Shown here one piece after another: positions 2,039 through 8,866 of a stretch of DNA of 64,000 nt (its first letter is position 1; each line of letters begins with the position of its first letter). A model generated the notes under the pieces. The model worked only from the letters and a program-made list of their open reading frames with translations, searched no databases and had not been told where the DNA came from. Source of the DNA: Bacteroidota bacterium. Its GTDB lineage: Bacteria; Bacteroidota; Bacteroidia; Chitinophagales; Chitinophagaceae. The position numbers were made by a program, and so were the translations under genes. The stretch is from assembly GCA_018267585.1 (NCBI GenBank), contig JAFDYE010000482.1:14380-78379 (forward strand), read 5' to 3'.

Positions 2039-2116
2039 TTCACCGTCCGGAAAGGCGGCGTTTACTCTATCTCCCACCTAACCGAAGGCACAAGAATTGA
2101 GGAAAGAATTCAGACA

Positions 2117-3892
2117 ATGGAAAATGAATCCTTTCTTACAAAATACGTCTTCAGCACCGATCACAAGATAATAGCCAAACAGTTCCTCATCACCGGCATA
2201 TTGTGGGCGCTGGTCGGGGGCTTTTTTTCAGTCCTTATGCGTCTGCAGCTCGGCTTCCCCAACACGTCTCATACCTTTCTGCAGCGACTGGCCGGCCATC
2301 TGTTCGTTAGCGGCAAGCTCCAGCCCGAGACCTACTATCAACTGATGACGATGCACGGTACGATCATGATCTTCTTCGTTCTCACGGCAGGGCTCAGCGG
2401 AACATTTGCCAATTTCCTTATTCCACTGCAGATAGGAGCAAGGGACATGGCGTCCCCCTTTGTGAACATGCTGTCTTACTGGGCCTTCTTCGTGGCGAGC
2501 GTCATCATGATCGCCTCCTTCTTTGTACAGGGCGGCCCCTCGGGAGTGGGATGGACTGCCTACGCACCACTTAGCGCACTAAAGGATGCGGACTCTGGCT
2601 CCGGCACAGGACTCGACCTCTGGATCACAAGCCTGGCCTTCTTTATCGTCTCGACGCTGATGGGCGGCATTAATTACATATCCACGATTCTCAATATGCG
2701 CACAAAAGGAATGAGCATGACGCGGCTTCCCCTCAGCACCTGGGGTCTGCTGTTCACCGCCATCATGGGCCTCCTTTCCTTCCCGGTGCTGCTGGCAGCA
2801 TTCGTGCTCCTCCTGTTCGACCGCAACGCAGGGACCAGCTTTTTCCTCTCGGACATCTTCATGACCTCGACCGCACGCGCAATGCCCTATGAAGGCGGGA
2901 GCGCTATCCTCTATCAGCACCTCTTCTGGTTCCTTGGTCACCCTGAAGTCTATATCGTCATATTCCCCGCCTTCGGGATCGTCTCCGAAGTAATGAGCGT
3001 CAATTGCCGAAAACCGATCTTCGGCTATACGGCCATGGTGTATTCGATGTTCGCTATTCTTTCCCTCTCCTTCATGGTCTGGGCCCACCATATGTTCGTA
3101 ACGGGAATGAACCCCTTTCTCGGCTCGCTGTTCGTGCTGTTCACACTGCTGATCGCCATTCCGTCAGCCGTCAAGGTCTTTAACTGGCTGGCAACGCTCT
3201 GGCGGGGCAACATCCATTTCACCCCCGCAATGCTGTTCGCCATCGGATTCGTCAGCACCTTCATCTCGGGCGGGCTGACCGGCATCTTCCTTGGCAATTC
3301 CACCATCGATATCCAACTGCATGACACCTATTTTGTGGTAGCGCATTTCCACCTGGTCATGGGCGTATCCGCCGTTTTTGGTATGTTCGCGGGCATTTAT
3401 CACTGGTTCCCAAAAATGTTCGGCCGGTTCATGGACCCGGTGCTCGGCTATATCCACTTCTGGATAACCCTCGTATCCGTCTACTTCATCTTCTGGCCGA
3501 TGTATTACGAAGGGCTGGCGGGTATGCCGCGCCGGTATTTCGATTTCTCGGGCTGGATATCTTTTAACCAGTTCGAAAAACTCAACATCGTCATTTCCTC
3601 CTTTGCTTTTTTGGCATTCTTCGTACAGCTGATATTTGTCGTTAATTTCTTCCGCTCCATCTTCAAAGGAGAAAGGCTGAAAGAGAAAAATCCCTGGAAG
3701 TCCAATACCCTCGAATGGACGACACCAATAAAACCCGGTCACGGCAACTGGCCGGGAGAGATACCCGAGGTCTTCAGAGGCCCCTACGAATATTCAAAAG
3801 ACGGAAGAGAGTTCATTCCGCAGGACGAACAGCCGGGATCCGTCAATAGTGACATTTCTGACATTCCGTCCCGCCAATATTCTCAACGGTGA
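2117..3892 (+). CDS. ctaD: Cytochrome c oxidase subunit I (heme-copper oxidase, A1 type), stand-alone copy
   Basis: Motifs MHGTIM, GARDMAS..N (D-channel D and N), WFLGHPEVY, WAHHMF, IAIPSAVK (K-channel K), HDTYFVVAHFH and GMPRRY. ATG 2117 preferred over the track's GTG 2015. Confidence 0.95.
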   Translation: MENESFLTKYVFSTDHKIIAKQFLITGILWALVGGFFSVLMRLQLGFPNTSHTFLQRLAGHLFVSGKLQPETYYQLMTMHGTIMIFFVLTAGLSGTFANFLIPLQIGARDMASPFVNMLSYWAFFVASVIMIASFFVQGGPSGVGWTAYAPLSALKDADSGSGTGLDLWITSLAFFIVSTLMGGINYISTILNMRTKGMSMTRLPLSTWGLLFTAIMGLLSFPVLLAAFVLLLFDRNAGTSFFLSDIFMTSTARAMPYEGGSAILYQHLFWFLGHPEVYIVIFPAFGIVSEVMSVNCRKPIFGYTAMVYSMFAILSLSFMVWAHHMFVTGMNPFLGSLFVLFTLLIAIPSAVKVFNWLATLWRGNIHFTPAMLFAIGFVSTFISGGLTGIFLGNSTIDIQLHDTYFVVAHFHLVMGVSAVFGMFAGIYHWFPKMFGRFMDPVLGYIHFWITLVSVYFIFWPMYYEGLAGMPRRYFDFSGWISFNQFEKLNIVISSFAFLAFFVQLIFVVNFFRSIFKGERLKEKNPWKSNTLEWTTPIKPGHGNWPGEIPEVFRGPYEYSKDGREFIPQDEQPGSVNSDISDIPSRQYSQR

Positions 3893-5063
3893 TGGAGTCC
3901 TTCGCGCCCGTGGCCAGCTCACGGGCAAATCTGCTGTAGATGCTATAGAACCTGTTGCCCTTATTGGTGCCATCGGGAAAATCGACCTTGGTGGTCCGGT
4001 GACAGTTGATACACCAGCCCATGCTCAAAGGAGCGAACTGCCGCACCTCATCCATCTCCTGCACCGGCCCGTGACAGGTCTGACATTGTATCTTGCCGGC
4101 TTTTGTGTGCTGGGCGTGGCTGAAGAAAACGTGATCGGGAAGACTATGGATCCTGACCCATTCGATCGGATGTCCGGCCTTCGTGTATTTCCTCTGATCC
4201 GGATCATAGCCGGTATAGCCGTATAGCTTTCTGATCTCGTCATTGGGGTTGACCCTGCTACCGTCCTCCCGCTGCAGCCGCTCACCACGGTAGTCATTGA
4301 TGGCCAGGTGACAGTTCATACAAATATTGGGAGAGGGGACAGTAGCATGTTTACTTTCAAGGGCATTGGTATGACAATACAGACAGCTTATCTGATTGAG
4401 GCCTGCGTGTATCCTGTGTGAAAAATAGATCGGCTGCTTCGGCTGATAGCCCTGTGACCGCCCCAGTCCTATCCCAAGCTGTGTCATCCAATAGCCAACC
4501 ACGCCGAACAGCAAAATGCTGGCCACAGTTATATATATCTTGTTCCGGTAGACCGGGACAGGCGGGGGCGCAACCAGCCCCTGTTTTTCTTCGGCCAGTT
4601 TCTTAAGATTGAGATTGTGCAGATAGAGCCCAATTACAAAAAGGCCGAGAATGCAGCTGACGATACCGTAAAGCAGACTGTGATCCTCCTCAGGAGGGTT
4701 AGGGAGGGTCGAAGTATTGGTCTTCGCAAGCGGCTCTGCATAACTATTGACATAACTGAGAATGGCGTCTATTTCGGCGTCGGAGAGTCCCGGGAAGGTA
4801 TTCATCGGCGCACGACCGTACTGGTTATAGAGATTTGTGAAATAAGTGTTCCCGGAAGCCAGTACCTTGGTGTTGTTGTGGATCCAGTCGTGAAGCAGCT
4901 TGCGGTCGGTGACCCGGTCTGTGACGCCCTTTAACGCCGGACCGGTGATGACCCTCACCGGATTGTGACACTGGGCGCAGTTGGTCTGGAACAAAGCCTT
5001 ACCATCCTGGGCATAAGCCCGGAAAGAAAGAAATAAAAGGACAAAGAAAAAAAGCCGCGCCAT
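3843..5063 (-). CDS. Hexaheme c-type cytochrome, ActA-like (signal peptide, monoheme domain, 2 TM helices, pentaheme c3-type domain)
   Basis: Six CxxCH motifs: CAQCH, CLYCH, CMNCH, CQTCH, CINCH, CQKCH. QPIYFSHRIHAG, WVRIHSLPDHVFFSHAQH and SMGWCINCHR match alternative complex III ActA. Start set at MARLFFFVLL (5063). Confidence 0.85.
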   Translation of the reverse strand: MARLFFFVLLFLSFRAYAQDGKALFQTNCAQCHNPVRVITGPALKGVTDRVTDRKLLHDWIHNNTKVLASGNTYFTNLYNQYGRAPMNTFPGLSDAEIDAILSYVNSYAEPLAKTNTSTLPNPPEEDHSLLYGIVSCILGLFVIGLYLHNLNLKKLAEEKQGLVAPPPVPVYRNKIYITVASILLFGVVGYWMTQLGIGLGRSQGYQPKQPIYFSHRIHAGLNQISCLYCHTNALESKHATVPSPNICMNCHLAINDYRGERLQREDGSRVNPNDEIRKLYGYTGYDPDQRKYTKAGHPIEWVRIHSLPDHVFFSHAQHTKAGKIQCQTCHGPVQEMDEVRQFAPLSMGWCINCHRTTKVDFPDGTNKGNRFYSIYSRFARELATGAKDSITVENIGGTECQKCHY

Positions 5064-5099
5064 GTCGTGGCTTTTTCCAAAAAAAATCATGCCAGCCAC

Positions 5100-5378
5100 C
5101 TACAGCAGATTGCTCGTCATGGGATCGATGACCGCCTTTACTTCTGCGATCGTATTGACGGGGAAACCGCCCAGACGGGCATGTTCCCGGATCAACTCCT
5201 CACTTTCAGCAATATGAATGCAGTAGATCTTGTCTTCGGTGACAAAAGACTGTATCCAGTGATAGGGCTTGCCCAGCTGACAAACCACTTCGCAGGAGGT
5301 CCTTGCGATCTCCTGCAGCTCTTCCGGCGAAAGGTTTCCGGCGCCGGGTAGTATTCTCTCGATAACAAACTTCTTCAT
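5100..5378 (-). CDS. DUF4242 protein, cytoplasmic single domain
   Basis: MKKFVIERILPGAG...WIQSFVTEDKIYCIHIAESEELIREHARLGGFP matches the DUF4242 pattern. No signal peptide. Confidence 0.85.
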   Translation of the reverse strand: MKKFVIERILPGAGNLSPEELQEIARTSCEVVCQLGKPYHWIQSFVTEDKIYCIHIAESEELIREHARLGGFPVNTIAEVKAVIDPMTSNLL

Positions 5379-5404: not shown

Positions 5405-5475
5405 CAAAGTTGTCCCTTATATCCTTCAACAATGATAGAGGTTCTCCCTATTTAAGGCGGGCGGATTCCCTATTT
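5405..5475 (-). promoter_or_regulatory. TAGGG direct-repeat operator plus -7-like element for the DUF4242-cytochrome unit
   Basis: Minus strand AAAATAGGGA...AAATAGGGA with TAGGG starting at 5472 and 5450 (22 bp apart), then CAACTTTG ending at 5405, 45 nt from the proximal TAGGG. Confidence 0.65.
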
Positions 5476-8067
5476 TAGGATCCCCAGCCTGAGCGCCTCC
5501 TGTACCGCCTTGGTCCGCGAGTTGACATCCAATTTAAAAAGGACCGAAGAGATATGATGGTCGACGGTCTTGGCGGAAATAAAGAGCCTGGCCCCTATTT
5601 CCTTGTTCTGCAACCCCTCCTTCAATAATTCGAGAACACCCAGCTCCCGGTCGGTAAGAAGGGCCGGATTGGCAAGGGTCGTTTTCCTGAGACCCCGGGG
5701 AATGCTTTTGATGCCGGAAATCCTCATTTCCAGCTTCATCTTCTCATAGACCGCCCCGGCACCCAGCTGATTGACGATCGTCAACGCCTTTTTCTTGTCC
5801 TCCCCGCCGCCCTCGAACAGGGCCAGCGCCTGCTCATAAGGACAACCCAGCCGTTCCCATAAAGCCGCGGCCCGGACAGCCCCAACCGACGTACCCAGTC
5901 GATAACCCTCGTAGGTTTCCCGGAGGGGAACCTCCAGTTTTCGGCTCCTCAACAGCCAGAAATCGAATTCGCTATTCTCATAAAGGCTGGCCGTCTGCCC
6001 GATCAGCCCGATCGCGCACTCGATGGCCTCCTTTTCGAGCAGCAGGCTTCCGGTAAGCCATTCATACTCCAGCAGGGCTACCAGGGCAGGAAGTATCCGC
6101 TGCAGCTCCATCGCCTCAAAAGCCATCGCCTTCGCCTGCAGCAGAAGAGGAAGAGCATCCCCTTCCCCCTTCCTCATCTTTATCGTCCCGATCACCACCA
6201 GCGCACCCATCCTGACGATCGGCGCCTGGTCCTCATTCTTCAGGAGCTCCTCCGAAAGGCTGCAGGCCTCTTTCCAACGTCCCGTATCCAGCATCAGCCT
6301 GGCCTTTCCAGACAACATATAGGTCCTCCAGGAACCCAGCTCCCTCTCCTCACAATATTGAATGCCCTGCGCAAGTACCCCGGCGGCAAATGCATAGTCC
6401 TTTATTTTTATACCGCCATTGCTGAGGCTCGTATAGGCCTGGGCCGCCAGTTCATGATAACCATGTTTCAGCGCCAGCTCAAGGCTTCGCTGCAGCAGCT
6501 GAACCCCTCTTTGCCGGTACGCCGGTATCCGCATCTGAACAGCCCCGACATTGTTGAGAGCATGGGAAAGGATCTCGTCATCCCCCAGCTCGTTCGCGAT
6601 GACGATCGCGTTCTCACCCCAATGGATGCATTCCACGATTTGATCGGAAAGCATCTTCAACTGCGACATATTGCTGTATGCCATGGCCTTGGCCCGCGAA
6701 GAAGGCTGGGCTGCGAGGACCTCGATGGCCTGCTGCCCGTAGCTTTCGGCCTGCTTGCGATTGCCGTCGAACCACCAGAGACGCGACAGGAACCACATCG
6801 AATCCCCTATTCTCCCCGTCTCCTCCTTCTCCTTCCAGATGGCAAGCGCCTTTCCCTGGTAAATAATGGCCTCCTTGATCCGGTTGGTCAGATAGCATTC
6901 ATAGGCATAGGACGCATAGAGCCTCACCAACAGGTCCTTGTCCTTCCCCTGGTAGTATTCGATGGCCGTATAGTACAGTTTGGAAGCCTCGACGTGCGCT
7001 CCGACCTCCGCAGCCGCAGCAGCAGCAAGAGGAGCATAGCGAACGACCAGCTCATATTCATTGGCATTTTTCGCATGATGGACGATCCGTTCTATCTCGC
7101 GGTGCTCCTCAAAGCTCCCCCTGAACAGCTCCAGGATCTTCTTGTTCAGCGCGATCCGCACAAAAGGCGACAGCGAGGTCTCGATCGTCCTCCGGTATAG
7201 CTCGTGCTTAAAGAAAATAAGCCCCTCCCGGACGAACAGGATCTTCGCCTCGAGGCATTTCGCCAGCGCCGACGCATACATTGGCTCGACCGTTTCCAGG
7301 TATTTTACCTCAAAGCCCGTCGGCAGTACGGACAGCAGGTCCCATACCTGCTTGGTCTTTTCGTCCAGCCGGTGATACACAGAGAGGACGGCGTCTTTAA
7401 TATTGTCGGGGACCCCCGGACTGTAACTCGCCAGGATCTCGTTCACATAAAATGGATTTCCACCGGAAATGCTATAGACGTCCTCCCCGTTATAGCCCTT
7501 CTCCTTCGCCAGCTTCTCAACCGCAGGTCGCGACAACGGCGTCAGGTGCAACCGGGTGAAAGAGTCGGGAGGCAGCTGTCCCAGGACATTTCGCAATGGA
7601 TGTAAAGAATGGATCTCGTCGTCCCGGTACGTGAGAACAAAAAGACAGCGTAGCCGGGCAATGCGCCTGGCCAGGAACTTTATAAAATCCAGTGTGGCCT
7701 CGTCGGCCCAGTGGATATCCTCAAAGATGATAACGGACGGCGACGACCGGCTGGCGATCTCATGGATGAACCGGTTGAAAAGTGCGGCCCTGTCCTCCTT
7801 CCCGCCGGTATTCTCCCAGCCATCGCCGTGTATCTGCCAGATAATGTCATACAGCGGAGCCAGTGGACGCGGCGTGAACAGCGCGTCGCAGCTGCCCTGG
7901 TAAAAGCTGGCGACCTCTCCCTTTTCTCTGCAAAAAGCCCTTATCAGCGAGGTCTTTCCGATACCCGACTCTCCGCTTATAAGAATACAATGTCCCTCCC
8001 CATCTGCAATATCTCTTAGCCTTGATTGCAGAGTCGATAAAAAACCGGCTCTTTCGATCAACTCCAT
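5470..8067 (-). CDS. LAL/MalT-like regulator: N-terminal AAA (STAND-type) ATPase, helical/TPR-like middle, C-terminal LuxR HTH
   Basis: Walker A GESGIGKT; Walker B IIFEDIHWAD; GGNPFYV; C-terminal LTDRELGVLELLKEGLQNKEIGARLFISAKTVDHHISSVLFKL. Confidence 0.92.
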   Translation of the reverse strand: MELIERAGFLSTLQSRLRDIADGEGHCILISGESGIGKTSLIRAFCREKGEVASFYQGSCDALFTPRPLAPLYDIIWQIHGDGWENTGGKEDRAALFNRFIHEIASRSSPSVIIFEDIHWADEATLDFIKFLARRIARLRCLFVLTYRDDEIHSLHPLRNVLGQLPPDSFTRLHLTPLSRPAVEKLAKEKGYNGEDVYSISGGNPFYVNEILASYSPGVPDNIKDAVLSVYHRLDEKTKQVWDLLSVLPTGFEVKYLETVEPMYASALAKCLEAKILFVREGLIFFKHELYRRTIETSLSPFVRIALNKKILELFRGSFEEHREIERIVHHAKNANEYELVVRYAPLAAAAAAEVGAHVEASKLYYTAIEYYQGKDKDLLVRLYASYAYECYLTNRIKEAIIYQGKALAIWKEKEETGRIGDSMWFLSRLWWFDGNRKQAESYGQQAIEVLAAQPSSRAKAMAYSNMSQLKMLSDQIVECIHWGENAIVIANELGDDEILSHALNNVGAVQMRIPAYRQRGVQLLQRSLELALKHGYHELAAQAYTSLSNGGIKIKDYAFAAGVLAQGIQYCEERELGSWRTYMLSGKARLMLDTGRWKEACSLSEELLKNEDQAPIVRMGALVVIGTIKMRKGEGDALPLLLQAKAMAFEAMELQRILPALVALLEYEWLTGSLLLEKEAIECAIGLIGQTASLYENSEFDFWLLRSRKLEVPLRETYEGYRLGTSVGAVRAAALWERLGCPYEQALALFEGGGEDKKKALTIVNQLGAGAVYEKMKLEMRISGIKSIPRGLRKTTLANPALLTDRELGVLELLKEGLQNKEIGARLFISAKTVDHHISSVLFKLDVNSRTKAVQEALRLGILK

Positions 8068-8239: not shown

Positions 8240-8866
8240 ATGAAAATCTTTATTGTCCACACAGCACTCGCAGCATTGAGCCTGCTCCCTTTCCGATTAC
8301 TGGCCCAGTCGGATAATACAGTCGCCGAACCCAAAAATGGCGACCATTTGTACCTGGACGTCCACCACCTTGGTCCGGGTAAGGTCACAGCGTCGGCAGT
8401 CGCAGAGGCACACGCAAAGGATCTGGCTGTTCAAAGGAAATACGGGGTGCATTTTCTCAAATATTGGGTCGACGAAACCGGGGGAGATGTTTACTGCCTT
8501 TCTTCTTCTGCTGATACCCAATCTATACGCAGAACGCACGCTGAAGCACATGGCCTGCTCCCGGATCAGATATATCCGGTAACCGAAGGTAAGGAGTCGG
8601 CCACAAACGGTGAAAAGAATTTCTACCTCGATATCCACGACTTCGGCACCCAAAAGGTTACTCCCCGGGACGTGGCCGCGGCCCACCAGAAGGACCTGGC
8701 GGTAGAAGGCAAGTATGGCGTGAACTTTATCAACTACTGGGTCAATGGAGGCATGGTCGTCTGCCTGTCCCAGGCTCCGGATTCCTCAGCCGTGATCAAC
8801 ACGCACAAGGAAGCCCATGGACTTATTCCGCAACACATTATGCAGGTCAAACCGGGGGAGAAATAA
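8240..8866 (+). CDS. Exported tandem DUF4242 (SCO4226-like putative metal-binding) protein
   Basis: Signal peptide (LLA-QS) followed by two copies, offset 91 aa, of YLD[VI]H...A.AH.KDLAV..KYGV.F..YWV...V.CLS......TH.EAHGL.P..I..V. Confidence 0.85.
   Translation: MKIFIVHTALAALSLLPFRLLAQSDNTVAEPKNGDHLYLDVHHLGPGKVTASAVAEAHAKDLAVQRKYGVHFLKYWVDETGGDVYCLSSSADTQSIRRTHAEAHGLLPDQIYPVTEGKESATNGEKNFYLDIHDFGTQKVTPRDVAAAHQKDLAVEGKYGVNFINYWVNGGMVVCLSQAPDSSAVINTHKEAHGLIPQHIMQVKPGEK

Follow-up and report, generated by a model that had tools for sequence, protein, structure and literature searches.

The stretch of DNA analysed here (64,000 nucleotides, hereafter the window) carries two respiratory genes that meet tail to tail: coxI' (2117..3892, + strand), encoding a 591-residue A1-type haem-copper oxidase subunit I, and actA' (3843..5063, - strand), encoding a 406-residue hexahaem ActA of alternative complex III (ACIII). 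Both are intact paralogues of housekeeping genes that lie elsewhere in the same genome; they are kept in a conserved arrangement under purifying selection, share a common history and carry distinct promoter motifs. The pair is probably an accessory module whose products are iso-subunits, made under certain conditions and exchanged into the housekeeping ACIII-aa3 supercomplex; we infer from the observations below that they join the main complexes, with whatever retuning of function may follow.

The assembly that holds the window (7.0 Mb in 929 contigs, 95% complete; G000, with the window on contig C424) probably represents a soil bacterium of the genus Puia, Chitinophagaceae. Its housekeeping genes are found on two other contigs: C498 carries the main actA-B-C-D-E and then ends, and C182 carries actF, coxII, coxI, cyoE, two coxIII, coxIV and sco. 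This actA-F-cox order is the standard Bacteroidota order and is unbroken in a relative (G007, locus L027). No gene for CoxII, CoxIII, CoxIV, CyoE, SCO or ActB-F is present in the window or the remainder of C424, and when these proteins were searched by tblastn against the whole assembly only the main set was recovered, plus a distant caa3-type CoxII on C402. A split operon, with coxI' and actA' as the only copies, is ruled out by the main clusters on C498 and C182; the housekeeping set being complete, the two genes are genuine orphans. The first-pass annotation of the window, which described an intact subunit I lacking subunit II, subunit III and assembly genes next to a hexahaem ActA-like gene lacking actB-F, and which suggested that the main act-cox operon should be sought elsewhere in the genome, is borne out on each of these points.

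CoxI' matches the Pfam COX1 family (PF00115, E 1.8e-145) with a score far in excess of the cut-off; its TIGR02891 score of 617.4 bits lies below the equivalog cut-off of 670.75, a shortfall that may be lineage-wide and not peculiar to the orphan. The closest solved structures are actinobacterial and proteobacterial aa3 subunits I, and identity to main CoxI (C182) is 73%. The true start codon is the ATG at 2117 and not the GTG at 2015, because all orthologues begin ME..SF and because the longer frame takes in a conserved promoter-like motif. All metal ligands are present (haem a, H80 and H412; haem a3, H410; CuB, H275, H324 and H325), and these six histidines are invariant in 16 orphans (the complete orthologous loci described below) and in 45 main and outgroup copies. 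Also invariant are E277 and the cross-linked Y279 of the helix VI motif GHPEVY (whose Glu is E286 in Rhodobacter sphaeroides numbering), the D-channel residues D110, N99 and N117, and the K-channel residues K353 and S350. The Mg ligands H402/D403 and the Arg pair R472/R473 do not vary in any of the 16 orthologues either; in solved A-type oxidase structures these residues make contacts to the haem propionates as well as to subunit II. CoxI' is at the same time distinct, with 17 positions fixed differently from 38 main and outgroup sequences.

The alignment of ActA' with the ActA of Flavobacterium johnsoniae (PDB 6BTM chain A) is full-length (E 2.6e-86; residues 20-406 aligned) and takes in the N-terminal domain and both transmembrane (TM) helices. 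The protein consists of a signal peptide, a monohaem cytochrome c domain, two TM helices and a pentahaem domain. Its six CXXCH motifs, five of which form the C-terminal pentahaem domain that follows a TM helix, are invariant in the 16 orthologues. The monohaem domain, a class I cytochrome c with a TM tether of its own (PF00034, E 6e-10, residues 18-107), has its haem motif, CAQCH, at residues 29-33 of the 406-residue protein read from the Met codon at 5063 (38-42 in the longer frame), together with a conserved Met in the sequence YGRAPMN. ActA' is 63% identical to main ActA (C498), and the divergence is unevenly spread: the region TM1-loop-TM2 is the most diverged (43% identity), whereas the monohaem domain is conserved at 78% among the orphans as against 70% among main ActA proteins. 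Two short features set the orphans apart. An EDH preceding TM1 is conserved and particular to ActA', and the linker that follows the monohaem domain (residues ~105-125; window ~4690-4750, - strand) reads P-L/M-A-A/K-T-N-T-S in 14 of the 16 orphans, the remaining two having TNNS (G266) and ANLS (G264); the same linker in main ActA is variable and rich in Pro, Gly and Thr. None of the 16 loci has any of actB-F next to actA', which therefore stands outside an actABCDEF operon throughout.

With CoxI' and ActA' as queries, a search of the genus (all 104 species genomes) found an orphan-type CoxI in about 25 and the convergent pair in at least 18, about a fifth of the species, comprising the 16 complete loci verified by tblastn, G005 (a long-read assembly full of frameshifts) and G022 (in which the pair is split over contigs); in three further genomes the contig stops within coxI'. 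The ends of the two genes are -179 to +24 nucleotides apart in 15 of the 16 orthologous loci. In the window they overlap by 50 nucleotides (3843..3892), with no terminator-like hairpin; neither sigma-70-type promoters nor intrinsic terminators at the junction were found, and the RNA fold there is ordinary (z -0.87). Since they converge with overlapping 3' ends, coxI' and actA' are neighbours and not an operon or a single transcription unit. The flanks of the pair vary among subclades, and conservation is thus confined to the two genes themselves. The searches found no genome of the genus with ActA' but without CoxI'. In one species (G009; locus L023, G009:C269, 3396-4934) both genes have decayed: its actA' has an in-frame deletion of ~85 codons with loss of two haem motifs, and its coxI' lacks the first ~350 codons and is shortened again by an internal deletion.

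Outside the genus, a survey of 200 genomes from 151 genera of the family confirmed no second ActA, and nearly every genome has exactly one. An apparent second ActA in another genus (G070) was rejected as an independent origin, being followed by actB and hence an operon copy. A second ActA-like open reading frame of a different kind was observed in other families of the order (G031:C62, G033:C8, G036:C41); it is longer (557-569 residues), starting with a cytochrome c domain and including a pentahaem domain ~48-50% identical. The pairing described in the first-pass annotation, which proposed a test for co-occurrence in other Chitinophagaceae, needs qualification. Adjacency, co-occurrence (18 or more species within the genus) and correlated divergence (below) all support pairing, but the genes are not co-transcribed, they are not obligate partners, and no second ActA was confirmed in ~150 other genera.

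Maximum likelihood trees with family- and order-level outgroups place each set of orphans in one clade (support 100/100 for CoxI' and 100/99 for ActA'). ActA' forms a clade with the main ActA of the genus (support 100/99) and is nested among the basal main copies; it is thus a descendant of the operon copy, and the duplication took place inside the genus. The CoxI' clade has a long stem (0.30) and lies in a polytomy with the main clade of the genus and sister genera, a position compatible with the same within-genus origin followed by acceleration. Recent horizontal import from another family is ruled out, as ActA' nests in the genus and the measures of GC content and codon bias match those of the main copies. 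The internal topologies of the two orphan clades mirror each other and follow both the main-copy tree and the species tree: the groupings G293+G275+G000, G294+G283, G243+G248, G007+G266 and G280/G278/G287/G286 are alike in both, with G264 basal. A lone CoxI in G241 (L183, G241:C1, 7370-9112), 82% identical to the main copy, is the sister of the entire orphan clade (99% support in the Shimodaira-Hasegawa-like approximate likelihood ratio test) and may reflect the orphan lineage as it was at the outset.

The orphans evolve faster than the main copies (2.4-fold for CoxI' and 1.6-fold for ActA') and are nevertheless constrained. By the Nei-Gojobori method the ratio of nonsynonymous to synonymous divergence between orthologues (dN/dS) is 0.05-0.11 for CoxI' and 0.065-0.16 for ActA', the corresponding main copies having 0.025-0.05 and 0.06-0.12, and no stop codon or frameshift occurs in coxI' or actA' of the 16 species. 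The pair is thus kept under purifying selection, which has not relaxed as far as neutrality. Pairwise divergences of CoxI' and ActA' are correlated (r 0.83), and remain so after main-copy distances are regressed out (partial r 0.78; Mantel p ~2e-4, nine species); this shows that the two have a locus history in common, have co-evolved, or both.

Both genes are preceded by a motif resembling a sigma-54 promoter, the canonical form of which is TGGCAC-N5-TTGC with GG at -24 and GC at -12. In the window the motif upstream of coxI' is GGCACAAGAATTGA (2087..2100, + strand), 16 nucleotides before the ATG, and that upstream of actA' is TGGCATGATTTTTTTT (5079..5094, - strand), 15 nucleotides before the ATG at 5063. 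Across the genus, GGCAY-N5-TTGW is found ~15-45 nucleotides before the coxI' start at 15 of the 16 loci and at three contig-edge loci (G282, G242 and G289), and TGGCAYGNTTTTTYY is found upstream of actA' at 13 of the 16, as well as in the window, where the start codon used by the scan had concealed it. On each gene the -24 element and the spacing agree with the canonical form, with TTGA at -12 for coxI' and TTYC or TTTT for actA', and the motif is conserved within intergenic DNA that is otherwise unalignable. Even in a loose form it is present in none of 37 upstream regions of main actA. It is missing from G264, from the lone CoxI' genes and from the G241 sister copy, so that within the crown clade both genes appear to have gained it.

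Several properties of the genome are relevant to the reading of these motifs. It encodes rpoN (two Sigma54_DBD matches) and at least 13 enhancer-binding proteins (full Sigma54_activat matches), and GGCAY-N5-TTGA is enriched ahead of genes, 23 of its 129 occurrences lying just upstream of a start; with incorrect spacing the figures are 5 of 38 and 5 of 86. Two such sites adjoin genes for enhancer-binding proteins, and the grpE gene carries TGGCAG-N5-TTGA; grpE has been reported to be sigma-54-dependent in Bacteroidota (PMC12316311). From these motifs we infer that coxI' and actA' would be sigma-54-dependent. Palindromes of the form GGRAW-N-WTYCC occur upstream of coxI' at ~9 of the 16 loci and never upstream of actA', so that they are rejected as an upstream activator site shared by both genes; the palindrome upstream of coxI' may be an activator binding site. 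A form GGGAAT-N2-ATTCCC was observed at -83 to -140 of coxI' (L035-L038, L040, L044 and others), often followed by GGTGTGGAAAT.

As to transcription, no RNA run holding exactly this DNA was found. In four metatranscriptome assemblies from rhizosphere or plant material, short contigs (150-240 nucleotides) match the pair at 91-94% identity; they cover parts of coxI' (3422-3700) and actA' (4308-4548 and 4837-5020) and also the junction (3742-3939). The same segments are 73-79% identical to the genome's own main paralogues and 76-85% to the nearest species-level orthologue, and the contigs therefore derive from the orphan genes of a very close relative. On expression, the absence of which the first-pass annotation named as a refutation, both genes thus have matches in RNA libraries, but as evidence of transcription these are weak, since contigs from such libraries may reflect DNA carry-over.

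The mechanism proposed here starts from duplication within the genus, which would have yielded a second aa3 subunit I, CoxI', and a second hexahaem ACIII subunit, ActA'. Because the genome has no second copy of the other oxidase or ACIII subunits, CoxI' would have to join the housekeeping CoxII, CoxIII and CoxIV, and ActA' the housekeeping ActB-F; assembly with these partners would give rise to variant isoforms of the supercomplex. The two genes would be read from separate promoters on the outward-facing flanks of the pair, in most species through a sigma-54-type -24/-12 element that is missing from the housekeeping act operon, and an enhancer-binding activator would switch both iso-subunits on together under some condition. 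The proposal of the first-pass annotation, that these may be exchangeable paralogues of two supercomplex subunits which retune respiration, is thereby supported in part.

A number of observations weigh against this interpretation. Pairing is not obligate: CoxI' is present without ActA' in G262 (99% complete) and in G250, G003 carries both genes unlinked on different contigs, and the lone CoxI of G241 has no ActA neighbour. The -12 part of both promoter motifs deviates from the canonical TTGC, the basal pair of G264 lacks both motifs, and the RNA-library contigs stem from a close relative and may include carried-over DNA. The diverged TM1-loop-TM2 region of ActA', if it packs against ActB-F, would oppose simple exchange. 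Finally, electrons enter A-type oxidases at CuA in subunit II; ActA is thought to feed this site, and subunit I is therefore puzzling as a co-varying partner. The proposed donor to the oxidase is the mobile monohaem domain at the N-terminus of ActA (PMC8552683). In a bolder version of the proposal, possible but doubtful, CoxI' and ActA' are co-evolving contact partners of a dedicated second supercomplex isoform that a sigma-54 activator switches as a unit; the altered interface would then lie between the diverged TM1-loop-TM2 region of ActA' and those parts of the CoxI' surface that are particular to the clade, and the pair would be the first module to re-specify both sides of a respiratory supercomplex.

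Of the other explanations, the one that fares best is that the two genes are independent and their adjacency historical, CoxI' serving as an oxidase iso-subunit and ActA' being put to some other use, as an ACIII isoform for a different acceptor or as a stand-alone electron carrier. The occurrence of CoxI' by itself in G262 and G250 and apart from ActA' in G003 speaks for independence, as do the restriction of the palindromes to the coxI' side and the proposed role of the ActA domain as electron donor (PMC8552683). The entry point for such electrons in A-type oxidases is CuA in subunit II, not subunit I. Independence is nonetheless unlikely, given that the tail-to-tail order has been retained in at least 18 species despite changing flanks, that ActA' was never encountered without CoxI' in the genomes searched, that the divergence of the two proteins is correlated beyond species distance, that both genes decayed jointly in G009, and that both carry the same type of promoter.

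If instead the orphans were redundant duplicates with no distinct role, drifting toward loss, a patchy distribution over about a quarter of the genus, loss or decay in G009 and G241, and rates of evolution 1.6-2.4 times those of the main copies would all be expected. The selection data make neutral redundancy quite improbable, dN/dS being held at 0.05-0.16 over branches with dS >0.6 and the reading frames being free of stops and frameshifts in 16 species, with every catalytic residue and haem motif invariant; the clade-specific conserved substitutions and motifs, and promoter motifs that persist amid unalignable intergenic DNA, are likewise not what drift would leave. The remaining alternative, that CoxI' and ActA' by themselves make up a minimal oxidase in which ActA' acts as a tethered cytochrome c feeding subunit I and bypassing CuA (compare cbb3 oxidases and cNOR), draws on the conservation of only these two genes in the module and on the greater conservation of the tethered monohaem domain in the orphans than in the main copies, but such a two-subunit enzyme is highly unlikely because CoxI' keeps the Mg ligands and Arg pair, residues that serve subunit II, and in addition CoxI' persists without ActA' in two species and, to our knowledge, no A-type subunit I works without subunit II.

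Exchange of CoxI' and ActA' into the housekeeping complexes, the interpretation preferred here, has precedents for single oxidases. In Pseudomonas aeruginosa the orphan CcoN4 is a catalytic subunit that forms hetero-complexes (PMC5697931), and CcoN3 and CcoN4 resemble coxI' in being extra catalytic-subunit genes outside the oxidase operon, with most or all partners missing and with separate regulation (PMC5697931, PMC10790758). Their hetero-complexes with operon-encoded subunits constitute condition-specific isoforms, as those of CoxI' would; the P. aeruginosa orphans, however, are C-type (cbb3) and accompanied by a small ccoQ, whereas CoxI' is A-type and accompanied by a subunit of a quinol:cytochrome c oxidoreductase. 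The ctaDI and ctaDII genes of Paracoccus denitrificans (PMC6955949) are, like coxI', isogenes for an A-type aa3 subunit I with intact catalytic residues, but both lie away from the ctaCBGE operon, unlike the present case, where the main coxI belongs to an operon and coxI' alone is an orphan; moreover, P. denitrificans has bc1 instead of ACIII and no paired paralogue of the electron-donating complex. The ACIII-aa3 supercomplex of F. johnsoniae (6BTM; PMC8552683) contains an ActA with the same architecture as ActA' (monohaem domain, two TM helices, pentahaem domain), and its gene order, actA-F-coxII-coxI, is that of the main cluster of this genome. Literature searches found no paper on a second ActA or on an orphan subunit I alongside ACIII.

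The surroundings of the pair in the window include no further cox or act gene. In window order they begin with an ABC/FtsX permease gene upstream of coxI'. On the other side a gene for a small cytoplasmic DUF4242/SCO4226-like protein (5100..5378, - strand, 92 residues) lies directly upstream of actA' and is a neighbour only; the gap of 36 nucleotides between its end and the actA' start is occupied by the sigma-54-like motif, and among the 16 loci it is present only in G000 and G275. A STAND-LuxR regulator gene (5470-8067) then lies between this gene and one for an exported tandem DUF4242/SCO4226-like protein (8240-8866, + strand), and a histidine kinase gene comes last. This neighbourhood is common among the 16 loci only to the closest relatives, G275 and G293 (the latter without the small gene), and since it is so limited the DUF4242/LuxR genes fall outside the conserved module; permease-regulator-SCO4226 synteny is also present in G005. 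The metagenome-assembled genome G275 contains in addition a second coxI' fragment with an ABC permease (L191, G275:C9, 1-3894), 94% and 84% identical to the window, respectively, which points to strain mixture or contamination from a closer relative of the window organism. Elsewhere in the assembly, C402 carries a third oxidase (L006:1-3966), with a CoxI that is 39% identical, exceeds 696 residues and runs off the contig, and a CoxII-cytochrome c fusion. It resembles caa3-type oxidases and is preceded by a gene with an ASRT (Anabaena sensory rhodopsin transducer) domain; C402 has a GC content of 56.6%, as against 54.4% for the genome, and contamination is thus possible.

Swapping of iso-subunits is already known for single oxidases, namely the cbb3 of Pseudomonas and the aa3 of Paracoccus. 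What is new here is one small, vertically inherited module that duplicates one subunit from each of the two partners in a supercomplex. Should the products not swap in, the module would amount to no more than two respiratory paralogues particular to this lineage. The module also indicates that ACIII, which has until now been regarded as single-copy in Bacteroidota, can have isoforms. The roles of the ActA mobile haem domain and of ActE in electron transfer to aa3 are still debated (PMC8552683), and if the products of coxI' and actA' do swap in, the module would offer a natural experiment on ACIII-to-aa3 electron transfer and on the co-adaptation of supercomplex partners.

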